64,000 nucleotides of DNA from Patescibacteria group bacterium (GTDB lineage Bacteria > Patescibacteriota > Minisyncoccia > Phycocordibacterales > Phycocordibacteraceae), in the NCBI GenBank assembly GCA_040388985.1, contig JAZKAU010000002.1:52570-116569 (forward strand). The letters are read 5' to 3'. A program made the position numbers and the translations under genes. Under the pieces are notes generated by a model. The model worked only from the letters and a program-made list of their open reading frames with translations. It made no database searches and was not told the DNA's origin. This document shows, piece after piece, positions 4,110-59,362 of the stretch. The stretch's first letter is position 1, and the number at the start of each line of letters is the position of its first letter.

Positions 4110-4916
4110 ATGCTAAGCGACCTATTCAAAGAACTGGGGCTTTCCGAAAGTGCTCACCGCATATATCTCTGGCTGCTTGAAAATGGCACGTCCACGGCTC
4201 GCACGCTTGCCGAGAACCTTGGTCTTCCCCGCCCTTCCGTATATGACCATCTGAACGCGCTCATCCAGAAGGGTCTCGTGCTCGAGCGCGAGGAAGGCCA
4301 TACGAAAACGTTCCAGATAGACGACGTGAAGAATCTTCCGCGACTTCTCGAGGAACGCATGGACGCACTTAGCGAAGAGAAAGCTGCGCTCGAGGTCCTC
4401 CTCCCGCAACTGCAGAAGCAGACCGCATCGGTCGAACCGAAGATACGCTTCTTTTCCGGAGCAGAAGGCGTACGCCAGGTGCTGAATGACATCATGTGGT
4501 ACGAGAATATCGAGACGATGAGCATGTGGCCCATTCGTGAGATGGTCGATCTCCTTGGAAAGGAGTATTTCGAAAAATTAAATCGCAAGCGCATCCCGCG
4601 CGGCATCTTCATACGAGCCGTCTGGCCGGAGAACAAGCGTGTTCCCTTCAAGGACTATCCGTTTCTGGGCACCGGAACCGGCCACTTGCGTGATCTTCGC
4701 ATCGGCCCTAAGGGTATGAGCTTTGATATGGGGTACTGGATATACGCCGACAAGGTCGCCTTCCTGTCGTCGCGCAAAGAGACATTCGGCTTCACTATTC
4801 ATAGCAAGGACTTCGCGGTGATGCTGAAGTCGCAATTCGAGGTCGTATGGGCTGCGTCAAAGCCGGTTAAGCCTGAGCCGCAGCATACCGACGCCTTTCT
4901 CGAGACGGTCAGATAG
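4110..4916 (+). CDS. TrmB-family HTH transcriptional regulator (paralog 1 of 9)
   Basis: N-terminal LGLSESAHRIYLWLLENGTSTARTLAENLGLPRPSVYDHLNALIQKGLV is a TrmB-type winged HTH. C-terminal domain is shared with 8 other ORFs in the window (e.g. conserved ...FEVVWAAS tail). Confidence 0.7.
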   Translation: MLSDLFKELGLSESAHRIYLWLLENGTSTARTLAENLGLPRPSVYDHLNALIQKGLVLEREEGHTKTFQIDDVKNLPRLLEERMDALSEEKAALEVLLPQLQKQTASVEPKIRFFSGAEGVRQVLNDIMWYENIETMSMWPIREMVDLLGKEYFEKLNRKRIPRGIFIRAVWPENKRVPFKDYPFLGTGTGHLRDLRIGPKGMSFDMGYWIYADKVAFLSSRKETFGFTIHSKDFAVMLKSQFEVVWAASKPVKPEPQHTDAFLETVR

Positions 4917-5589: not shown

Positions 5590-5700
5590 CTCCTGGGCTA
5601 CACCGAGGGCTTTCTCCTTACAGGAGCTGTATACCTTTGGGGTTTTCTCACCGAATAGAAATTCGGCTCATAAACATCGCAAAGGTCTTCAAGTCCTCTC
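5590..5700. repeat. R-element copy 1: ~110-bp repeat containing antisense pseudo-tRNA-Leu 3' fragment
   Basis: ~90% identical to 7770-7880. Plus strand carries CGCAAAGGTCTTCAAGTCCTCTCCCGTGCTACC, resembling the 3' half of tRNA-Leu (GCAAGGCGTGGAGGTTCAAGTCCTCTCCTGGGCACC) but on the opposite strand to the adjacent real tRNA. Contains hairpins CTCCTTACAGGAG and CCGAATAGAAATTCGG. Confidence 0.5.
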
Positions 5701-5718
5701 CCGTGCTACCAAGCGATA

Positions 5719-5746
5719 CGACCCCGATGCTTTCGCATCGGGGTCG
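5719..5746 (-). terminator. hairpin 3' of tRNA-Leu(GAG)
   Basis: CGACCCCGATGC-TTTC-GCATCGGGGTCG is a 12-bp stem immediately downstream of the tRNA 3' end. Weak U-tract. Confidence 0.4.
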
Positions 5747-5753
5747 TTCGCCT

Positions 5754-5838
5754 TGGTGCCCAGGAGAGGACTTGAACCTCCACGCCTTGCGGCACATCCA
5801 CCTCAAGGATGCTTGTCTACCAATTTCAACACCTGGGC
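5754..5838 (-). tRNA. tRNA-Leu (GAG)
   Basis: Type II tRNA. Acceptor GCCCAGG/CCTGGGC, anticodon stem CATCC/GGATG, loop TTGAGGT (GAG), long variable arm, T-arm GGAGG-TTCAAGT-CCTCT, encoded CCA. Confidence 0.85.
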
Positions 5839-5939
5839 CTGGTGTGCTCGTGCAGAGACTTGCCCACTATACGAAAGATATAGCTAAAAAGAAAGAGCCG
5901 CCCATAGGGCGGCTCTTTCTTTTTTCAAAATCTCTATCC

Positions 5940-7769: not shown

Positions 7770-7880
7770 CCCGGGAGGACTTTCTCCTTACAGGAGCTGT
7801 ACACCTTTGCGGTTTTCTCGCCGAATAGGAATTCGGCTCACAAACATCGCAAAGGTCTTCAAGTCCTCTCTCGCAAAGCG
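7770..7880. repeat. R-element copy 2 (antisense pseudo-tRNA-Leu 3' fragment repeat)
   Basis: CTTTCTCCTTACAGGAGCTGTACACCTTTGCGGTTTTCTCGCCGAATAGGAATTCGGCTCACAAACATCGCAAAGGTCTTCAAGTCCTCTC is ~90% identical to 5590-5700. Confidence 0.5.
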
Positions 7881-7895
7881 CGCAGGCGCTTCACT

Positions 7896-7945
7896 CCGGG
7901 CACAAATGAAAAAGCGCTTGTGAGCGCTTTTTCATTTGTGCCCGG
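7896..7945 (-). terminator. 22-bp perfect inverted repeat / terminator overlapping 3' end of tRNA-Leu(CAG)
   Basis: CCGGGCACAAATGAAAAAGCGC-TTGTGA-GCGCTTTTTCATTTGTGCCCGG. Core GCGC...GCGC hairpin plus U-run downstream of the tRNA on the minus strand. Confidence 0.5.
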
Positions 7946-8022
7946 GAGAGGACTTGAACCTCCACGCCCTTGCGAGCTCTACGACCTGAACGTAGCGTGT
8001 CTACCAATTTCACCACCCGGGC
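7939..8022 (-). tRNA. tRNA-Leu (CAG)
   Basis: Type II tRNA. Acceptor GCCCGGG/CCCGGGC, anticodon stem CTACG/CGTAG, loop TTCAGGT (CAG), T-arm GGAGG-TTCAAGT-CCTCT. CCA not encoded. Confidence 0.85.
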
Positions 8023-8058
8023 CTGCGGTGCACTATACCAGATACGTTGCGCGAAACG

Positions 8059-8790
8059 TCAGAGCGCGACTCCCGTAAATACCTTCTCGAGCGTACCTTT
8101 CGCGACCAGCTCCTCCGGAGAGCCCTGCGCGACTACCTTCCCCTTGTCAAGTATATAGCCGCGCGTGGCGATAGTGAGGAGCGACTTGATATTGTGTTCC
8201 ACCACGACGATGGATGTCCTGCGCTTCTCGTTTATATCCTTCACGAAGGCGAATATCTCTTTCACGACCTTGGGAGCCAGCCCGAGCGACGGCTCGTCGA
8301 GCAAGAGCACTTTGGGATCGGTCATGAGTCCGCGCGCAATGGCGAGCATCTGTTGTTGTCCGCCTGAGAGCGTGCCTGACTTCGCGCCGCGCTTCTCCTT
8401 GAGTACGGGGAAGAGTTCGTAGAGATCGCGTATGCGTTCCTTCACGAGCTGCGGGCTTTTGATCCTGAAACCGCCAATCTCGAGATTCTCCTCGACCGTA
8501 AGATCAGCGAAGACGCGACGACCCTGCGGGACGAAGGCTATGCCGCGCTCAACTACCTCGTGCGAGACCGGCGTGAACTTTTGCCCTTCCCAGGACACCG
8601 TGCCTGAAAGAATGGGAGCGAGTCCGAACAGAGCTTTGAGTATCGTCGACTTCCCTGCGCCATTGGGCCCCATCAGGGCAACTACTTCGCCCTCGTCGAG
8701 ATTCACGGACGCGCCGTCGAGCGCTTTCACGCCGCCATAGTGGACGTGGATATCATGCAGCGACAACAATGGTTCCTTGAGTTCTTTCAT
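8059..8790 (-). CDS. livF: branched-chain amino acid ABC transporter ATP-binding protein LivF-like
   Basis: Walker A GPNGAGKST, signature LSGGQQQ, Walker B LLLDEP. Typical LivF length. Confidence 0.85.
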   Translation of the reverse strand: MKELKEPLLSLHDIHVHYGGVKALDGASVNLDEGEVVALMGPNGAGKSTILKALFGLAPILSGTVSWEGQKFTPVSHEVVERGIAFVPQGRRVFADLTVEENLEIGGFRIKSPQLVKERIRDLYELFPVLKEKRGAKSGTLSGGQQQMLAIARGLMTDPKVLLLDEPSLGLAPKVVKEIFAFVKDINEKRRTSIVVVEHNIKSLLTIATRGYILDKGKVVAQGSPEELVAKGTLEKVFTGVAL

Positions 8791-9521
8791 ACGCCTAAGT
8801 ATGCCTCGATCACTGCCGCGTCACTCAGTACGTCCTGCGGCGTGCCTTCCGTAAGGAGCTTACCCGTATCCATCACGATGACGTGATCGCAGAGTTCGCG
8901 GATGAGCGCCATGTCATGCTCGATGAGCACGATGGTCTTCCCCTGCTCTCGCAGCTCTTTCATGATTCCCGATACGAGCTTCACCATCTCCGGAAAGAGC
9001 CCCGCATAGGGCTCGTCGAAGAGGACGATGTCGGCGCCTGTGGCGAGCGCCCGCGCGATTTCAAGGAGTTTACGCTGACCATAGGACAGCTCCGCCGCAT
9101 TCGCGCTCCGCTTCTCCCAGAGTCCTACGCGCTCGAGCACTGTTCGCGCGCGCTCGATATGCGCGCCGCTCGGTCGTTCGAAGAGCGAACCGAGGATGCT
9201 CCGGCGCGTGAGCGCAATGATGATATTATCGAGCACCGTCATCTGTTCGAATATGCGCACATTCTGGAAGGTGCGGGTGATGCCCAGCTTGAAGACTTCG
9301 TAAGGGCGTATGCGAGACCGTTCCTTCCCTCCTTCAACTACTACGATTCCCCCATCCATCCTATGGATACCGGTGAGAACGTTAGTGAGCGTAGTCTTCC
9401 CCGAGCCGTTTGGCCCTATCACGCCCGTTATCTTCCCTTTAGGAATAGAGATGGAAAGCCCGTTCACGGCTTTCACGCCGCCGAATACTTTAGCCAGGTT
9501 CTTTGTCTCTAGCGCAGCCAT
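8787..9521 (-). CDS. livG: branched-chain amino acid ABC transporter ATP-binding protein LivG-like
   Basis: GPNGSGKTT, LSYGQRKLLEIARAL, LFDEP. Overlaps livF by 4 bp (operon). Confidence 0.85.
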   Translation of the reverse strand: MAALETKNLAKVFGGVKAVNGLSISIPKGKITGVIGPNGSGKTTLTNVLTGIHRMDGGIVVVEGGKERSRIRPYEVFKLGITRTFQNVRIFEQMTVLDNIIIALTRRSILGSLFERPSGAHIERARTVLERVGLWEKRSANAAELSYGQRKLLEIARALATGADIVLFDEPYAGLFPEMVKLVSGIMKELREQGKTIVLIEHDMALIRELCDHVIVMDTGKLLTEGTPQDVLSDAAVIEAYLGV

Positions 9522-23071: not shown

Positions 23072-23857
23072 TCACGAGCCTGACACGGCCTTCTCACTAC
23101 GCTTCGCTTCTTTCCAGGCTAGCTCGAAAACTTTCTTCATAGCATGAGCAATCTCGGCGCTTTCTATAATGATGCCGAGCTTATCGCGCCATGAGGCGAT
23201 CATTATCTTATTGTCATAGATCTCGATGTCAGGAGTTATGTCGAATTCCTCTTTAGGTATGATGGCTATGTCACGCTTCTCATCCTTGTTATGTGAGGCG
23301 CGCTCAAGCGACGCAGTAGTCTCTGGGACGATGCCGCGAATGCTGATCCCTTTCTCTGCTCGACGTTCATAGTATCTAGGGAAATAGTTTCCGAGCGTCG
23401 CGTGCATATCTTCGTATGCGGCATACGCCACGATCGGTTCAGTTGCGGTCAATGTATCTTCGTACACTTCCTTAAGCCCCTCAATACCTTCGTAGAATCG
23501 TACTTGCGGCCGGTCCTGGACCGTATGCATCGCCCTTAGCTGCGGCAAGAACGCTTTGGCGGTACGCAACTGTTGTTCCGTCTCGGATAATCTGCTATCG
23601 AGAAGCGCGATAAGCTTATCCGGAGACTCGGCGGCATATTCTTCCTTCGGTTCTTTCCCCGACAATCGTACCAGATCCTTCTGAGCCAAGGCAGCGAGTA
23701 TGTCGTAGCCGGTAGTCCTGTTTATGCCGGCCTTACGTGATATCTGGGTTACAGTCCCGCGACCGAGCTTCAATATCGCCAGATATACGCCAACCTCTCT
23801 CTTAGAAAGTCCTAACGAGATAAGCGTCTTTACGATATTCTGTTGTCCCTTTTCCAT
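23072..23857 (-). CDS. TrmB-family HTH transcriptional regulator (paralog 7)
   Basis: LGLSKREVGVYLAILKLGRGTVTQISRKAGINRTTGYDILAALAQKDLV. C-terminus MKKVFELAWKEA. Divergent from radical SAM gene. Confidence 0.7.
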   Translation of the reverse strand: MEKGQQNIVKTLISLGLSKREVGVYLAILKLGRGTVTQISRKAGINRTTGYDILAALAQKDLVRLSGKEPKEEYAAESPDKLIALLDSRLSETEQQLRTAKAFLPQLRAMHTVQDRPQVRFYEGIEGLKEVYEDTLTATEPIVAYAAYEDMHATLGNYFPRYYERRAEKGISIRGIVPETTASLERASHNKDEKRDIAIIPKEEFDITPDIEIYDNKIMIASWRDKLGIIIESAEIAHAMKKVFELAWKEAKRSEKAVSGS

Positions 23858-24033
23858 ACGATAACCATACACTACGCTCTATATTTGTGTCAATATTACT
23901 CCACAATATACATTATATCCTTTATATAAAGGATATTCGAGTGTTCTTTTATTGACATAATTGACAGTAAGGAATAATATTGTATCGGGTGCAACTTGAC
24001 ACCAACCGATAATACAAACCAAGGAGGTCAATC

Positions 24034-25284
24034 ATGAACGTATTCCCTAACGTGGCAGCAACCCTGCCGCCTAAAGGTCAGATTCCGCACAGGTATCGCC
24101 TGATGGTCAACAAATGGAGCTTTCCGGAGGACCGGATCGGCGAAACCGTTACGGCCCACGGCGAGACCATCAAGAAGATGCTCACCCTCGATATCAACAT
24201 TCCCGAGACCGGCTTCGCAGTCCTCGTCAACGCGCAGGCACCAGGATCGGACGCAGCCAAGCGCACGTTCGTGAAAAGCTATCCTTGTCCGCACGCATGC
24301 CCTGGCTGCTTCAATAACGCCGACCTGTTCAACCCGATCATGTCGCTCGAGGAGGTCTTCTCCGTCATCGACCAGGCCTGCGAACTGGGCCTGGAATCCA
24401 TGAAGTTCCTCGGTCCGGGGGAGCTGCTCGCCAATCCTCGAATGTTCTACATCCTCGACGAGCTGGCGAGGCGCAATATCGTCGCCGGCATCTTCACGAA
24501 GGCGGCAATGATGGGTAATGATATGTTGTCGCAGCACTATCACGGCATCGGCTCGGAAGAGCTGACGCGCCGGCTCGCGACATATCCCAACATTACCTTC
24601 CTGGTGGGCGGCCGATCCTTCGACCCGGCACTCGAGAATCGGTTCATTCCCCAGAACCGGCGCGAGTTCAGTGAGCGCTTCGACTACCACGCGGCACGCG
24701 GTCTCGCGATCGAGCGTCTCTGCGCGCACGGCATGAATGCCGATCTCATGCACCAACGGCTCGAGATCGCCTGCGCGCCGGTCACGAGCGAGAACATCGG
24801 CGGGTGCCTCGAGCTCTATCAATGGGGTACCGAACGCAATATCCCCGTGGTAATGCCGCCCACGATGGTAAGCGGCAAAGGCCATCGGCTGGAGAAGGCC
24901 GCTGCCGAGGTGCAGTTCGAAGACGACTATATCGAGCTTGCCGTAGCGGTCTACACCTGGGCTATCCAGCGCGGCGTCATGACCGTGGAGCAGTTGCTGC
25001 ATGAGGGCGCAGCACCCTACATCGGCATCGCTCCCTGCAACCAACTGACCCATGGCCTGTACATCCACTACGACGGTCAGGTGTGGCGGTGCCCCGGGAA
25101 CGACACTCCCGACTTCGTCGTGCACCACAATGTGCGCGAAGCTCCGTTGCGACAGATCTGGGTGAACAGCAGGAACTATGGCATTCAGGCCTTCAACAAC
25201 GGATGCGTCAAGGACGGCATATCGCTGCCAATGCGATTCTACAGCGAAGTGCCGGAGCGCGTGGTCGCGATGCTGAAGATCTGA
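24034..25284 (+). CDS. radical SAM protein (CxxxCxxC) with ~85-aa N-terminal extension and C-terminal Cys-containing (SPASM/twitch-like) region, function unknown
   Basis: SYPCPHACPGCFN is a C-x3-C-x2-C radical SAM cluster motif, followed by a Gly-rich FLGPGELL SAM-binding stretch. C-terminal CNQLTHGLYIHYDGQVWRCPGND...NNGCVKDG. Perfect SD AAGGAGG 6 nt upstream of the ATG. AT-rich promoter region 23873-24033. Confidence 0.7.
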   Translation: MNVFPNVAATLPPKGQIPHRYRLMVNKWSFPEDRIGETVTAHGETIKKMLTLDINIPETGFAVLVNAQAPGSDAAKRTFVKSYPCPHACPGCFNNADLFNPIMSLEEVFSVIDQACELGLESMKFLGPGELLANPRMFYILDELARRNIVAGIFTKAAMMGNDMLSQHYHGIGSEELTRRLATYPNITFLVGGRSFDPALENRFIPQNRREFSERFDYHAARGLAIERLCAHGMNADLMHQRLEIACAPVTSENIGGCLELYQWGTERNIPVVMPPTMVSGKGHRLEKAAAEVQFEDDYIELAVAVYTWAIQRGVMTVEQLLHEGAAPYIGIAPCNQLTHGLYIHYDGQVWRCPGNDTPDFVVHHNVREAPLRQIWVNSRNYGIQAFNNGCVKDGISLPMRFYSEVPERVVAMLKI

Positions 25285-25360: not shown

Positions 25361-26113
25361 CTACCGGCTCGGAAGCGAGTCCCAGATGACCTTGAAGAGG
25401 TTCTGTTGCATGCGCACGAGGGCTTCGGTCTCTATGACGATGGTCGTGACGGGATTGGTGAGCGGATGGATGACTATCTTACGGGGCGCGATAGCCATGT
25501 TTGCGTCGATAGTCGTTCCTTCCGGCAGTATGCGCACTTCTTCGCGATAGTTCTTCTCTGTCTTCTTATATGAGCGCGCGGTCTCTGAAGACACAAGGAT
25601 GACCTTGGTATGCACGTCTATGCGCAGCCGCCGCTCTATGAACGTCTTGAAATATTCCTTGTCGAAGTGATTCCACCGGTCCGGGTCGCCGATGACATAG
25701 TAGTCGTCACCACTGCGGAGATCCTGAAGCAGCTCATCATACGCACTTTTCATAGCTTCAACTCCCGAGTGATACCGGATGATGGAGTCGTTACCGCGCA
25801 GCGTATACAAGGCTTCGAGCTCCGGGAAGAACGACTGCAGCGCGTTCTTCTGCTCATCGAGCATGCGTTCGAGGCGTGCAGGGTTCTCCGCTACCGGAAA
25901 TTCCTTGAATCCTCTCTGCTCGACGGATACCAGTCCCTTTGCCTTCAGAGTCTCGATGACGTGGTAGATAGTCGTCCTCTTCACACCCGACTGGAGCGCA
26001 ATCTTTAGGATAGTGGTGGGGCCAAGCTCCAGCATGGCCAGATATACGGCTGCTTCGTGGTCTCCGAGCCCCGCGTGAGCCAGCATTCTCTGGAGTGATT
26101 CTCTGTTTTGCAT
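25361..26113 (-). CDS. TrmB-family HTH transcriptional regulator (paralog 8)
   Basis: AGLGDHEAAVYLAMLELGPTTILKIALQSGVKRTTIYHVIETLKAKGLV. C-terminus ...QQNLFKVIWDSLPSR. Confidence 0.7.
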   Translation of the reverse strand: MQNRESLQRMLAHAGLGDHEAAVYLAMLELGPTTILKIALQSGVKRTTIYHVIETLKAKGLVSVEQRGFKEFPVAENPARLERMLDEQKNALQSFFPELEALYTLRGNDSIIRYHSGVEAMKSAYDELLQDLRSGDDYYVIGDPDRWNHFDKEYFKTFIERRLRIDVHTKVILVSSETARSYKKTEKNYREEVRILPEGTTIDANMAIAPRKIVIHPLTNPVTTIVIETEALVRMQQNLFKVIWDSLPSR

Positions 26114-26267
26114 GATATGTCGAAAGCTCGGACAAATTTATTTCCTTATTTATAGCATTGTTTTTGTCGTATTTATATAATCTGTCGACAATTTTGGCGA
26201 AATAGATATACGCCCCCACCATTAGCGCTACGTACTACCCTGGTGCGCCTAATACCAACGAGAATAT

Positions 26268-26954
26268 ATGAAAAAAGAACTGACGCTCGCGATAGGCGAT
26301 TCGTGGCATCCGCGTGCCCTTCCCTATCTCGCGATGATCCTGATGGCCATGATGCTCATTACGAACGTCCTCAACCTGAAGTTCATCAACTTCTTCGGGC
26401 TCTCGATTATCGGATCAGAGATCATCTACGTCTTCTCTCTCATCCTTTCGGACATCATGACGGAGGTCTATGGATACCGTCGCGTGCGGCGGCTATTGTG
26501 GGCAGGCCTTTCGTGCCTCGTCCTGTACGCGGTCTTCGTACAGGCAGTCGTCCTGCTCGCTCCTGCGCATGGCTATACAAGCAATGCCGCCTTCGTGACC
26601 GTATTCGCGCAGGCGCCACGCATCGTCGTTGCGAGCATCGCCGCATACTTCGTTACCGAGCTTGCGAACTCGCTCGTCATGTCGCGCATGAAGGTCCGCT
26701 TCCGTTCGAAGTACTTTTACGCTCGCGCACTCGGCTCGACGATGGTCGCACAAGCGGCCAACGGCGTGGTGTTCTTCGGCATCGCGTTCACGGGAGTCAT
26801 GCCGCTCAACCTCATCGTTTCCGCCTGCGTCTTCAGCTGGGTCGCCGTCATTGTCTGCGAGACGCTCATCCTTCCGATCACTAAGAGGCTCGCCTATCTG
26901 CTCAAGCACTATGAGGGGGTCGAGCATTACGACCAGGCTCCGCAATCGAACTAA
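26268..26954 (+). CDS. YhhQ/DUF165 (VUT) family membrane transporter, queuosine-precursor transporter-like
   Basis: 6-TM protein. ...YVFSLILSDIMTEVYGYRRVRRLLWAG and VVFFGIAFTG segments match conserved cores of YhhQ-family proteins (F-x-F...D...EVYG; FF.IAF). Confidence 0.55.
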   Translation: MKKELTLAIGDSWHPRALPYLAMILMAMMLITNVLNLKFINFFGLSIIGSEIIYVFSLILSDIMTEVYGYRRVRRLLWAGLSCLVLYAVFVQAVVLLAPAHGYTSNAAFVTVFAQAPRIVVASIAAYFVTELANSLVMSRMKVRFRSKYFYARALGSTMVAQAANGVVFFGIAFTGVMPLNLIVSACVFSWVAVIVCETLILPITKRLAYLLKHYEGVEHYDQAPQSN

Positions 26955-44398: not shown

Positions 44399-44520
44399 TC
44401 TGACTTCCAATCCTGTGTTGGAGTGTTGAGAAATTGTCGGTGAACTCGCGAACACCTGAAAATAATACTACTCTAAATCTGCTGTTTTGTCAATAGGTCC
44501 GCAGCGTCCCAGTATCTTGA

Positions 44521-44643
44521 GAGGTTTCTGAAAAACCCGATATGCAAGGCGCTGAGGAGTGAAAGACCGAGTCGTACTCAGGCGTACGGTGAGGTCTTGA
44601 GCGACGAGAGTAACGCAGCAGATCGGGGAATTTCAGGAAGCTC
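44521..44643. mobile_element. MITE-like element copy D (minus orientation, short 123-bp variant of copy A)
   Basis: rc reads GAGCTTCCTGAAATTCCCCGATCTGCTGCGTT...AGTACGACTCGGTCTTTCAC...CGCCTTGCATATCGGGTTTTTCAGAAACCTC. Both TIRs present. Confidence 0.5.
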
Positions 44644-47698: not shown

Positions 47699-47777
47699 CC
47701 GCCCTGATACGTGCTTCAACATATAAATGAAGGTCGCCGCGAGCATGCTCGCGGCGACTAAGTTCCTGACCCATACG

Positions 47778-49223
47778 TCAGCCGGGATCGGCCAGCGCAG
47801 CCATAACCGACGGGCTGTAGAAGAGTGCCAACACCTCATCCTCGAGCAACTGCCCGAGTAGGGATAGCCGCAGGACGACAGCCCCGTCGCGCTCGGTCTG
47901 GACGAGCACGCCGAGGTTCAGGAGTTGTCCGACCAGCCGGTAATAGTGCTCCGAGAGCGCAGGATACCGCTGCCGTGCCAGGCCGTCAGCCTCGGTCTCG
48001 ATCCGTCCGGTACGCAGTCCCGCGACATACGAAGTCGCGAGTTGCTCCGCAAGATCGATCTCGAGTGCCGTCCCAATGGGCACGCGCCCCTCTTCGATAC
48101 GCGCCACGTACTGGCCGCCCTTGTTCTCCGGTAGGTTCCGGAAGAACAAGCCGCAAGTCTCCCCGGTCACGCGGGAATAGGCCGACGCGCCGATTCCGAG
48201 AAGGTCGTTCGTTCCGGCTAGCCGGGTATTCTTGAACGGATCGACGTAACGCTCGTCCAAGACGAATCGGTTGCCATCCACCTGGCGATAGCCCATCTTG
48301 CGGAGTTGCTGCCAGATGAGCATGCGCCCAAGGAAGGTGTCCTGTTCACCCTCGAAGTCCCGCTGCGTCTTCGGATCGGCACGGCGCCTGCCCTGAGGGC
48401 GATCTGGGTCGAACCGGCCGTGATACCAGGTGATGTGCGGCGGCCGTATAGTTTCCAGTACTTGCAGATTATCCCAAACCTCGTCAGGCGTGCCGCTCGA
48501 AAGCGACTGTATGAGATCGACGTTCCAGTTATCGAACACCTCGCGCACGTACGCGCAGGCGCCAACAGCGATCTCGCGGCCGTATCCACGCCCTGCTTCT
48601 TGTAAGACCCGGTTATCGAAGGATTGGATGCCAAAACTGAAACGCGTGACACCCTCTCTTTTCAGTGCGCGGAGCTTCTGAGGTCCTTCTTCTGCGGTGA
48701 TGGTAAGCGGACTTCCCTCTACGCAGATCTCGGCATCTGGAAGCAGGTTGAACTTTTCCCGGATAAAGCGGACCAGGTTGACCAAATCCGCTTCTTCGAG
48801 CACCAGCGGCGTGCCGCCGCCGATGTAAAGCGACGAGATCGCCGTTCCCGTGCGACGCAGCTGCTCCGCCCAGAAATCCAGGTCCCATGTCAGGGCTTCC
48901 ATGTACCGGCCGACTTTCGCCTGCGTGCGGAGCCCTTTCCAAAGCATGACGTCGTAATGGCAGAATGGGCATTTGCTTTCGCACGGAACGATGTGGACGT
49001 ATAGGTTCGTCGTTCTGCCGTACTTTGGCACGTTTATTCCTTCGATGGACGTAACCGTCCGCAAGGCTTTCAGCGGCGGGTAGGTGACCACGGAATGACT
49101 CCCTCCCAAGGTTAGACGACTGATTTGTAGTCCGGCTCCGCGCAGCTTCGGCAGGATGCCGGGAATACCGAGACGTACCAAGGCTTTGTTCGCTCTTGCG
49201 AAAGCGATTGACTTATCACTCAT
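47778..49223 (-). CDS. radical SAM HemN/HemW-family protein (coproporphyrinogen-oxidase-like)
   Basis: VPCESKCPFCHYD (CxxxCxxC). YIGGGTPLVL is the HemN-family GGGTP motif. 481 aa. Confidence 0.7.
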   Translation of the reverse strand: MSDKSIAFARANKALVRLGIPGILPKLRGAGLQISRLTLGGSHSVVTYPPLKALRTVTSIEGINVPKYGRTTNLYVHIVPCESKCPFCHYDVMLWKGLRTQAKVGRYMEALTWDLDFWAEQLRRTGTAISSLYIGGGTPLVLEEADLVNLVRFIREKFNLLPDAEICVEGSPLTITAEEGPQKLRALKREGVTRFSFGIQSFDNRVLQEAGRGYGREIAVGACAYVREVFDNWNVDLIQSLSSGTPDEVWDNLQVLETIRPPHITWYHGRFDPDRPQGRRRADPKTQRDFEGEQDTFLGRMLIWQQLRKMGYRQVDGNRFVLDERYVDPFKNTRLAGTNDLLGIGASAYSRVTGETCGLFFRNLPENKGGQYVARIEEGRVPIGTALEIDLAEQLATSYVAGLRTGRIETEADGLARQRYPALSEHYYRLVGQLLNLGVLVQTERDGAVVLRLSLLGQLLEDEVLALFYSPSVMAALADPG

Positions 49224-49435
49224 GACTTCCTCCTGAGATGCGTATTGCGTTGTGAAATAACTTATTCGACAGAATATCCTAACTGATGTCTAATCTACGT
49301 TCGATATACTTATATGTCAAGTATATCTAACAGTGCTTGGATGTATAGATATACTAATATATGGCTATTTTTACGTATACAAGTAGTTGTTATATTTTAT
49401 TGACACAATTATGACCTTAGATATATACTTACTTT

Positions 49436-50221
49436 ATGGAAAAGACATCTCAAAAACTGAAGGAGTCGCTTACTTCTCTAGGACTATCTCAGAAGGAAGC
49501 GGCCATCTATATTGCTCTCTTGGAGCTTGGTAGATCGACCGTATCGCAAATCTCGCGGAAGGCGGCCGTGAACCGCGCGACCGGCTATGTCATCCTCGAT
49601 TCCCTTATCACTAAAGGGCTCGTCAGTATCTCCGGCAAGGAGCCGAAGCAGGAATATGTCGCAGAGTCTCCCGATAAGCTGCCTGAGTTTTTCAGGAACG
49701 AGCAGAAAGAAGCTCGAGAGAAGGAGGAGAAGGCACAGGAGCTCTCGCTTCAGCTGAAGTCGATACAGAAGGTCGGTGATCGGCCGCAAGTACGTTTTTA
49801 CGAGGGAGAGGAAGGGATAAAGGCCGTCTTCGAGGATTCCCTGACTGCGACGTCAGGAAAGATAATTGCTTTCACCTCTATAGAGGACCAGCATACGTCT
49901 ATTCCAAACTACTTCCCCGAATACTACCAGCGCCGCAAGAGGAAGAAGATATTCATGCGGTCGATATTTCCCGACACGCCCATGGGTATCGAGAGACAGG
50001 GAGCGAACGAGAGCGAGTATCGCGAGTCAGTCCTCGTTCCCAGAGAGATGTACGGCATCCACCCTGCTATAAACGTATACGACAACAAGCTTATGATCGC
50101 TTCCTTTCGCGAAAAGCTCGGTATCCTCGTGGAAAGCGCCGAGATCGCGGACGCGATGAAGAAGATATTCGAACTCGCGTGGATCGGCGCGCATTCCCTG
50201 GAAACACAAAAAGAAACATGA
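49436..50221 (+). CDS. TrmB-family HTH transcriptional regulator (paralog 9)
   Basis: LGLSQKEAAIYIALLELGRSTVSQISRKAAVNRATGYVILDSLITKGLV. C-terminus MKKIFELAWIGA is closest to paralog 7. Confidence 0.7.
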   Translation: MEKTSQKLKESLTSLGLSQKEAAIYIALLELGRSTVSQISRKAAVNRATGYVILDSLITKGLVSISGKEPKQEYVAESPDKLPEFFRNEQKEAREKEEKAQELSLQLKSIQKVGDRPQVRFYEGEEGIKAVFEDSLTATSGKIIAFTSIEDQHTSIPNYFPEYYQRRKRKKIFMRSIFPDTPMGIERQGANESEYRESVLVPREMYGIHPAINVYDNKLMIASFREKLGILVESAEIADAMKKIFELAWIGAHSLETQKET

Positions 50222-50239
50222 TTTTGGTATACTGAGCGT

Positions 50240-51484: not shown

Positions 51485-51624
51485 GATCGCTGGTTTCCTG
51501 ATCTGCTTTGAGCCGTCTAGGTGTCACCTAGACAGCTGCTATCCACACGAACGTTATCCACTACTTGCAAAGAAATACGATTCTGTTCAAATAGGAGGGC
51601 TACGCGGAATTCCGCGGCATAACG

Positions 51625-51800
51625 AGCTTCCTGAAATTCCCCGGTCTGCTGTGTTGTCGCTGCTTCGAAATTCTCACGTACGCCCCTAATTTCTTACGAG
51701 TAATCGAGTTAGAAATTAGGAAGTGCCCTTGGGGTGCGCCTTAGTACGCCTGGGAATTTCTCATTGCTCCGCCTTGCATCTCGGGTTTTTCAGAAACCTC
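51625..51800. mobile_element. MITE-like element copy B (plus orientation)
   Basis: 5' TIR GAGCTTCCTGAAATTCCCCGG; 3' end CTCGGGTTTTTCAGAAACCTC (rc GAGGTTTCTGAAAAACCCGAG; 15/21 identical to the 5' TIR). Internal segment is shared with inverted copy C. Confidence 0.55.
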
Positions 51801-51823
51801 TATAATAAGTAATTGCGACCATA

Positions 51824-59183: not shown

Positions 59184-59362
59184 AAGCCTGTTGAAAAACC
59201 CGAGATGCAAGGCGGAGCAATGAGAAATTCCCAGGCGTACTAAGGCGCACCCCAAGGGCACTTCCTAATTTCTAACTCGATTACTCGTAAGAAATTAGGG
59301 GCGTACGTGAGAATTTCGAAGCAGCGACAACACAGCAGGTCGGGGAATTTCAGCAGGCTTAG
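59184..59362. mobile_element. MITE-like element copy C (minus orientation; inverted relative to copy B)
   Basis: Plus strand reads ...CTGTTGAAAAACCCGAGATGCAAGGCGGAGCAATGAGAAATTCCCAGGCGTACTAAGGCGCACCCCAAGGGCACTTCCTAATTTCTAACTCGATTACTCGTAAGAAATTAGGGGCGTACGTGAGAATTTCGAAGCAGCGACAACACAGCAGGTCGGGGAATTTCAGCAGGCTT, the reverse complement of copy B. Confidence 0.55.

Follow-up and report, generated by a model that had tools for sequence, protein, structure and literature searches.

A candidate autoregulated repressor of the TrmB family and its two-way promoter region beside a HemN-like radical SAM gene in Patescibacteria

The DNA stretch studied here (the window, 64 kb) originates from a metagenome-assembled genome of Patescibacteria and contains a gene for a HemN-like radical S-adenosylmethionine (SAM) protein placed head to head with the gene of TrmB9, one of nine TrmB paralogs recognized in the window by all-against-all BLAST. 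We consider TrmB9, with a probability of about 60%, to be a local autoregulated repressor of a swappable divergent target gene. In this model, trmB9 would come with a conserved two-way promoter region of ~100 bp, serving its own leaderless mRNA on one side and the HemN-like gene on the other. Each promoter would contain a composite site TG(T/A)TA-N7-TTGACA with the −35 box as its right half, and the left edges of the two sites would lie 56 bp apart. TrmB9, a putative local transcription factor built in the manner of TrmBL2 from a winged helix-turn-helix (wHTH), a coiled-coil helix, and a C-terminal domain that is PLD-like, very probably binds both sites. Repression is the most likely sign of its control, since both −35 boxes match the consensus and lie inside the site, so that binding would block RNA polymerase and keep the regulator and the radical SAM gene repressed until a signal releases TrmB9. 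The conserved C-terminal domain, which is free of cysteine, presumably serves as the sensor of this signal. The target gene may be an exchangeable cargo of the regulator–promoter unit: in L035 (L-numbered loci are those of relatives compared with the window), which is syntenic with the window (ruvB ... trmB ... yebC-ruvC-pbp), an unrelated gene for 236 amino acids (aa) replaces the radical SAM gene. A degraded copy of the latter in L035 was rejected, as tblastn found no remnant.

Both open reading frames (ORFs) of the original prediction, as well as the CPFC and GGGTP motifs named there, were recovered at the positions given in Table 1. The radical SAM protein matched a single Pfam family, Radical_SAM (PF04055; 1.5e-14, 54.9 bits with a cut-off of 29.5), and carried the cluster motif C81-x3-C85-x2-C88 (CESKCPFCHY) and the sequence YIGGGTPL; the CxxxCxxC motif together with the PF04055 match places it in the radical SAM superfamily. 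TrmB9 belongs to the TrmB family according to the Pfam TrmB HTH domain (PF01978; 4.8e-15, 55.6 bits with a cut-off of 25.6), which covers residues 12–79 only. The spacer between the two genes (49224–49435, 212 bp, GC 0.30) and the one of a second TrmB–radical SAM pair (23873–24033, GC 0.32) were the two most AT-rich intergenic regions of the window, in which GC per kb elsewhere was 0.47–0.61. The AT-rich character and the TTGACA elements previously described for the 212-bp spacer were confirmed, and the elements lie in two outward-facing promoter-like sites as consensus −35 boxes; scoring for TTGACA and a −10 box gave four promoter-like sites vs. 1.5 expected. A leaderless TrmB9 mRNA is predicted, because the −10 box lies 6 nt before the ATG and a Shine-Dalgarno sequence is absent. 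The radical SAM mRNA has a predicted leader of ~60 nt and a strong GGAGG Shine-Dalgarno sequence. An Rfam search of the region including this leader yielded no match at E ≤ 1, and a riboswitch or other known RNA was rejected on these grounds. The radical SAM gene is probably monocistronic, since a terminator-like hairpin, common to the convergent ruvB gene, is located at its end.

TrmB9 and its relative TrmB7 were mutual best paralogs with 53% identity, while all other pairs with either of them showed 23–31%. Both belong to a conserved Parcubacteria clade with a predicted TrmBL2-like fold. The upstream DNA of 70 non-identical clade members was aligned at the start codon, and in ~60 of them we found TTTTGTGGAAA-N4-5-TTGACACAA or TTGTTATA-N4-ATTGACACAA, an element that can also be given as TTGTGGAAA or TTGTTATA, N4-5, TTGACACAA, and in short as TGTGG/TGTTA-N7-TTGACACAA. 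It was followed by ~18 nt, a TATACT-like −10 box, 6–7 nt, and ATG, with no Shine-Dalgarno sequence; therefore, leaderless mRNAs are predicted throughout the clade. Within the window, TGT-N9-TTGACA occurred four times vs. 0.23 expected, three of the matches being the promoters of the genes for TrmB6, TrmB7, and TrmB9 themselves and the fourth that of the HemN-like radical SAM gene. Common motifs in the AT-rich regions of the TrmB9 and TrmB7 pairs, which the original prediction implied, were thus present: both regions have the element TGT-N9-TTGACA(CAA) and the leaderless −10/ATG geometry.

Three loci (the window, L034, and L037) contain a second copy of the element, TGT(T/C)A-N-TTGACA, directed toward the radical SAM gene. 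Measured from 5′ end to 5′ end, the distance between both copies was exactly 56 bp in each of them, and the DNA in between could not be aligned. Across the clade, the target-facing site was found at 55–58 bp in most loci, with minor classes at ~36 and ~47 bp, and the spacing held whatever the target gene, including L035 (56 bp). The divergent promoter was the only universally conserved neighbor of the clade.

The residue following NRxTGY in the recognition helix varied together with the site. All 47 loci with an own site starting TGT(G/C)G had Asp there (D-type), and all 16 loci with an own site starting TGTT had Val (V-type). The target-facing sites obeyed this rule as well, with TGACG in 27 of 41 loci of the D-type and xxxTA in 9 of 12 of the V-type. 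In a neighbor-joining (NJ) tree, the Val type formed at least two separate groups, and the Asp/TGTGG members L042 and L045 were nested inside the TrmB9 group, which suggests that the Asp/Val switch occurred at least three times. This co-variation is the main reason to think that the TrmB protein, rather than a feature of the polymerase, reads both sites. A single recognition-helix residue as the putative specificity determinant, combined with a conserved operator, fixed promoter geometry, and predicted leaderless transcripts, offers a testable regulatory code.

Several points weigh against repression of the divergent gene by TrmB9, and some of them would fit other explanations. The first concerns the sign of control. 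The site is centered near −40 from the predicted starts, which is also compatible with class-II-type activation; TrmB9 would then be a signal-responsive activator of the radical SAM gene and of itself, bound just upstream of the −35 box and overlapping it. Archaeal TrmB and TrmBL1 are reportedly able to act as activators from sites upstream of the core promoter (PMC4706686). Against this, both promoters have a perfect TTGACA, and 4–5 of the 6 positions of the −10 box match, a combination not typical of promoters that depend on an activator; TrmBL2, the closest fold, is presented as a global repressor in PMC3031468. We regard activation as rather doubtful.

The second concerns the pairing itself. 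Of 15 Patescibacteria loci with a member of the enzyme clade, four (the window, L034, L037/L038, and L029) had a TrmB gene next to it, and the other 11 (L002, L003, L007, L018, L026, L031, L032, and L120–L123) did not. Therefore, the expectation that homologs of the enzyme gene adjoin TrmB genes in other genomes was borne out in part: the pairing recurs in L034, L037/L038, and L029 and is missing in most loci. Among the loci with 77–85% identical TrmB9 orthologs and enough upstream DNA, the divergent HemN-like gene was present in L034 and L037/L038 and absent from this position in L035/L036, L039, and L043. L029, a Kerfeldbacteria locus with a distant TrmB beside its HemN-like gene, was rejected as a carrier of the shared element, as it has a different motif (TATTGTCGACA-type palindromes). 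The remaining difficulties concern the element and its surroundings. Its right half is a mere consensus −35 box, and only the left half co-varies with the protein; in part, the element may represent a promoter feature of the RNA polymerase or UP type; the NJ tree carries no support values; in the TrmB7 region of the window, the promoter facing the second radical SAM gene has no clean copy of the element; and the model leaves unexplained the 22-bp palindrome of that region as well as the TAGATATACT repeats and central palindromes of the TrmB9 region.

The 11 enzyme loci without TrmB, the three loci where the radical SAM gene is missing beside a close TrmB9 ortholog, and the −35 box as right half would all be expected if the adjacency were incidental, i.e., if TrmB9 regulated only itself or distant genes and the element were a generic strong-promoter feature of this lineage, read by RNA polymerase or sigma and not by TrmB. 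However, TGT at −12 precedes only 4 of the 17 TTGACA hexamers of the window, all of them TrmB-linked; the left half co-varies with the recognition-helix residue at both own and target-facing sites; the 56-bp spacing is kept in three diverged loci; and radical SAM genes show strong enrichment at the divergent position only (see below). Incidental adjacency is, in our opinion, unlikely.

Another candidate partner of TrmB9 is the downstream yebC-ruvC operon, of which trmB9 would be the first gene, the radical SAM gene being irrelevant. The gap between trmB9 and yebC is just 18 bp (50222–50239) without a terminator, and the 84% identical ortholog in L040 is also followed by yebC. But unrelated or convergent genes come after the orthologs in L034, L037, L035, L039, and L043, an extended −10 box (TGnTATACT) of its own precedes yebC, and the only universally conserved neighbor of the clade is the divergent promoter; this alternative is very improbable. 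The −10 box of yebC lies 6 nt before the ATG, and no Shine-Dalgarno sequence is present, as in the TrmB genes; judged from these genes, leaderless transcripts may be common in the organism.

For the association with radical SAM genes at the level of the clade, a metagenome scan with the clade alignment was performed, and the best 80 of 493 loci were analyzed. Of these, 57 loci had at least 1.3 kb of upstream DNA, and 47 divergent neighbors were left after removal of duplicates. The divergent neighbor in the 57 loci was a SPASM radical SAM homolog in 11, a HemN-like gene in three, another radical SAM gene in one (L064), and a B12-binding radical SAM gene in one (L096). The CxxxCxxC motif occurred in 14 of the 47 non-redundant divergent neighbors vs. 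2 of the 194 remaining genes with a product of 150 aa or more in these loci (Fisher p 1.8e-9), and one of the latter two is probably a spurious antisense ORF. Thus, the association between the TrmB7/9 regulators and radical SAM genes, which belong to at least four families, is real. Other divergent partners of the clade were substrate-binding proteins, multi-pass membrane proteins, Cys-rich proteins, and unknowns. The earlier suggestion that this regulator family controls radical SAM functions agrees with the divergent pairing and with the copy of the element in the HemN-like promoter, but the clade faces other genes as well. No link was found to the anaerobic or cofactor functions that had also been proposed.

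The second pair of the window, at 23072–25284, mirrors the first, as had been pointed out: a TrmB gene (TrmB7) is divergent from a gene whose protein shows weak Radical_SAM and SPASM matches and falls into no curated family. In 11 metagenomic loci, a homolog of this protein is encoded divergently from a TrmB7-like gene. The two radical SAM proteins of the window are unrelated to each other. The pairs had been counted as two independent cases; in view of the close paralogy of TrmB7 and TrmB9, they are sister modules, and since the pairing is missing in the 11 enzyme loci and the three close-ortholog loci named above, they do not represent a general rule. The start of TrmB7 is most likely ATG 23857 and not GTG 23872, because of its alignment with TrmB9 and the orthologs of the latter, and the intergenic region then measures 176 bp. 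The TrmB7 promoter (TTGACA-18-TATGGT, followed by 6 nt and ATG) is predicted to be leaderless.

The AlphaFold2 model of TrmB9 (alignment of 39 sequences) had a mean pLDDT (predicted local distance difference test) of 93.8 and consisted of a wHTH, a helix of 28 residues, and a C-terminal domain of the alpha/beta kind. In Foldseek, TrmBL2 structures (5bpd, 5box, and 5bqt; E 1e-12) were the best matches over the full length, followed by TrmB; the TM-score to TrmBL2 was only 0.39, because the domain orientations differ. The C-terminal part matched proteins of the PLD fold and, within the sugar-binding domain of TrmB (2f5t), only the first subdomain, and the profile match of TrmB9 to TrmBL2 was 8.5e-6. 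The model shares the architecture of TrmBL2 (~260 aa, a wHTH, a coiled-coil helix, and a C-terminal domain that has no sugar-binding subdomain). By sequence, TrmB9 does not belong to NCBIfam TrmBL2 (NF041141; 15.6 bits vs. 530) or to the sugar-sensing TrmB/TrmBL1 families (NF040851, 33.9 bits vs. 600; NF047390, 27.7 vs. 650); the latter models match only its N-terminal part, and TrmB9 is ~80 aa shorter. TrmB9 contains no cysteine; the regulator itself is therefore unlikely to act as a thiol or Fe-S sensor, and redox sensing through thiols was discarded. The C-terminal domain was conserved equally with the DNA-binding domain, which is compatible with ligand binding or oligomerization. Concerning a ligand of TrmB9, as well as the reaction of the enzyme, we infer rather than observe. 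Orthologs of TrmB9 were up to 86% identical and far better conserved than the enzyme.

TrmB9 resembles TrmBL2 of Thermococcus kodakarensis (TK0471) and Pyrococcus furiosus (5bpd, 5box) in length (~262 aa) and three-part architecture; the sequence identity is only 15–17%. TrmBL2 is characterized as an abundant archaeal chromatin protein and global repressor in PMC3031468 and PMC4877046. The organism of the window differs in having a bacterial background and many paralogs per genome, each with its own conserved site and divergent local target. Such specific sites argue for sequence-specific binding by TrmB9 rather than for the low sequence specificity of the abundant chromatin-type TrmBL2. With TrmB/TrmBL1 of Thermococcales and TrmB of Halobacteria, the paralogs of the window share the PF01978 domain, the association with genes of ATP-binding cassette (ABC) transporters, and sites at the core promoter, whereas TrmB9 is devoid of the C-terminal sugar-binding subdomain of the sugar-sensing TrmB. 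The known archaeal TrmB motifs are palindromes and are unrelated to TGTGG/TGTTA-N7-TTGACA.

A further reading goes beyond local repression. The TrmB7/9 clade might represent a type of regulator confined to Patescibacteria and devoted to enzymes of the radical SAM, other Fe-S, or Cys-rich kinds. It would be a portable unit of regulator and two-way promoter that captures such genes repeatedly and links them to one common signal of radical SAM chemistry, read by the conserved PLD-like C-terminal domain without cysteines, with Asp/Val setting the operator specificity; SAM, 5′-deoxyadenosine, and iron-sulfur or metal status would be candidate signals. The enrichment of radical SAM genes among the targets hints at a common physiological signal, which is unproven, and we consider this reading as a whole speculative and unlikely.

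The arrangement as such, a local regulator facing a divergent target, is of a known kind. New are a bacterial TrmBL2-like clade with a portable two-way promoter region, an Asp/Val operator code, and a strong bias toward radical SAM targets. The TrmB family is expanded here, with nine copies within 64 kb. Gene control in Patescibacteria, with their tiny genomes and few regulators, is almost unexplored, and no literature linking TrmB regulators to Patescibacteria was found among the top-ranked results of full-text searches.

The enzyme encoded by the divergent gene had been assigned to the HemN/HemW family, which the curated models did not support: it scored 121.4 bits with STM4012 (NF006067; cut-off 380), 118.2 with ChuW/HutW (TIGR04107; 400), 111.2 with HemW (TIGR00539; 205.4), and 90.8 with HemN (TIGR00538; 324.95). 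All HemN-like NCBIfam models (HemN/HemW/ChuW/HemZ/STM4012) gave partial matches far under their cut-offs, and identity as HemN or HemW was rejected. The HemN_C Pfam domain gave no match at E ≤ 0.01, and the fourth cysteine of the HemN motif CxxxCxxCxC is absent (CPFCHY instead). Judged by these features, the protein is not a coproporphyrinogen dehydrogenase, and the name "coproporphyrinogen oxidase" for such enzymes is an annotation habit rather than a finding. The closest solved structures by sequence were HemN (1olt, 1e-22) and the class C methyltransferase NocN (9p2u, 1e-15); enzymes of class C have a HemN-like fold and use two SAM molecules for the methylation of an sp2 carbon. The HemN-like core, CxxxCxxC, and GGGTP are shared with HemN/HemW/ChuW and with the class C methyltransferases NosN and NocN; the enzyme differs from HemN by the missing fourth cysteine, the missing HemN_C match, and a conserved N-terminal extension of ~70 aa specific to its own clade. 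Because of the scores under cut-off, these differences, and the distinct context of the clade, the enzyme is a member of an uncharacterized HemN-like clade, presumably with a class C methyltransferase/HemW type of fold.

Homologs with 47–56% identity occur in Patescibacteria, Bradyrhizobium, Mesorhizobium, Burkholderia, Sphingomonas, Acidobacteria, and Actinomycetota. In 24 non-Patescibacteria loci, the homologs (~50% identity) were mostly part of a conserved four-gene operon coding for MNIO (MbnB/TglH/DUF692), a TglI-like protein fused to a methyltransferase (~880 aa), the HemN-like radical SAM protein, and a CmoA-like methyltransferase, in this order; the partner proteins were found in 15–21 of these loci (L004–L028, L030, and L033, e.g., L020:4398-10257; Proteobacteria, Acidobacteria, and Actinomycetota). 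No such partner, and no precursor peptide gene, adjoined the enzyme gene in the window or in any Patescibacteria locus examined, where the neighbors vary. The window locus is thus not a cluster of the MNIO type for peptides that are made by the ribosome and modified after translation (RiPPs): MNIO clusters with a TglI-like partner contain ~50% identical radical SAM homologs, whereas the Patescibacteria enzyme stands alone, here probably under a TrmB-type regulator. We found no paper describing a cluster of MNIO, HemN-like, and CmoA-like proteins. This unstudied clade, MNIO-embedded in Proteobacteria, Acidobacteria, and Actinomycetota and solitary in Patescibacteria, deserves attention.

Table 1. 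Coordinates of the genes, promoters, candidate sites, and repeats discussed in the text (positions in the window unless a locus is given).
Feature	Position	Strand	Remarks
HemN-like radical SAM gene	47778..49223	minus	481 aa; CxxxCxxC and GGGTP; from ORF and translation, Pfam
TrmB9 gene	49436..50221	plus	261 aa; predicted wHTH, long coiled-coil helix, and PLD-like C-terminal domain
TrmB9 promoter	49400..49429	plus	TTGACA-18-TATACT; 11/12 matches; −10 ends 6 nt before ATG; no Shine-Dalgarno
Candidate autoregulatory TrmB9 site	49388..49408	plus	TGTTATATTTTATTGACACAA; overlaps TrmB9 −35; conserved upstream of ~60 clade members
Predicted radical SAM promoter	49292..49320	minus	−35 TTGACA (49320-49315), 17-nt spacer, −10 TAGATT (49297-49292); 10/12 matches
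Candidate radical-SAM-facing TrmB9 site	49315..49332	minus	TGTTAGATATACTTGACA; overlaps −35 of radical SAM promoter; V-type "TA" signature
Shine-Dalgarno GGAGG of radical SAM gene	49229..49233	minus	5 nt before ATG; read from sequence
GC-rich terminator-like hairpin	47733..47758	minus	11-bp stem, 9 GC pairs; between convergent ruvB and radical SAM genes
TAGATATACT repeats	49301-49310, 49320-49329, 49346-49355	plus, minus, plus	Variant at 49418-49429
Palindrome ATATACTT-N7-AAGTATAT	49304-49326		Within repeat region 49301..49355
TrmB7 gene	23072..23857	minus	Closest paralog of TrmB9; D-type; revised start
TrmB7 own candidate site	23888..23908	minus	TGTGGAGTAATATTGACA (23888-23905) and 3 flanking bases; overlaps −35 of TrmB7 promoter
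Perfect 22-bp palindrome	23915..23936	no strand	ATATCCTTTATATAAAGGATAT; between divergent TrmB7 and SPASM promoters
Radical SAM/SPASM gene	24034..25284	plus	416 aa; divergent from TrmB7; promoter TTGACA-17-TAATAT at 23952-23980
Cys-rich partner loci	L063:164-1843, L065:183-1880, L068:2083-3684, L100:1006-2715, L114:2051-3736		Divergent to TrmB7-like regulators

The TAGATATACT repeats of the TrmB9 region comprise four copies in 212 bp, and the two exact copies are the only exact ones in the window. At up to two mismatches, the window contained 48 matches vs. 37 expected, and conservation of the repeats was lacking when L034 and L037 were compared at the orthologous intergenic regions, because of which their significance is uncertain; as a shared operator they were rejected for lack of both enrichment and conservation. 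The pattern ATATMCTT-N5-8-AAGKATAT matched only the TrmB9 and TrmB7 regions within the window, which is not an independent test because the pattern was derived from these two regions. The similar palindromes of both regions were likewise rejected as a shared operator, as their positions relative to the promoters differ.

The Cys-rich partner proteins were found in five loci; they had 533–569 aa with 28–39 cysteines and 6–12 CxxC motifs, and their sole Pfam match was a weak treble-clef zinc finger. Genes for a cytochrome b5-like and a SET-domain protein recurred near the TrmB9/HemN-like locus (L034:1948-2909, L035:5983-6417, and L123:1690-2070); in L034 they may be co-transcribed with the radical SAM gene, as they follow it on the same strand.

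The eight further TrmB paralogs of the window, at 4110–26113, are interleaved with six genes for LIV-type substrate-binding proteins and two permease genes. Most of the pairs are divergent, and the array is unusually dense for one regulator family. Two paralogous genes of ~243 aa within it (8059–9521) are presumed to encode the transporter ATPases. TrmB8 (25361–26113, minus strand) is divergent from a Vut_1/YhhQ-type putative transporter of vitamins or queuosine precursors (26268–26954). Their spacer (26114–26267) contains TAGATATACG, one mismatch from the repeat of the TrmB9 region, and TTGTCG...CGACAA elements resembling the L029 motif.

An intergenic repeat of ~170 nt was present in four copies (320–496, 44520–44643, 51624–51801, and 59185–59360), the third and fourth being 98% identical and inverted. 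Its ends are conserved (AGCYTYCTGAAATTCCCCGRYCTGCTG ... CGCCTTGCATCTCGGGTTTTTCAG) and pair as a long closing stem with compensatory changes (CG to UA), and the middle is variable. It had no Rfam match and could be a structured RNA or an element similar to miniature inverted-repeat transposable elements (MITE-like). The second and third copies are inverted and flank pilB-ruvB-rSAM-trmB9-yebC-ruvC, rSAM being the HemN-like gene. A duplicated segment with 81–94% identity was found at 5605–5847 and 7775–8031, 2.2 kb apart; each copy comprises a tRNA-Leu gene (gag and cag anticodons) and ~100 nt of flank.

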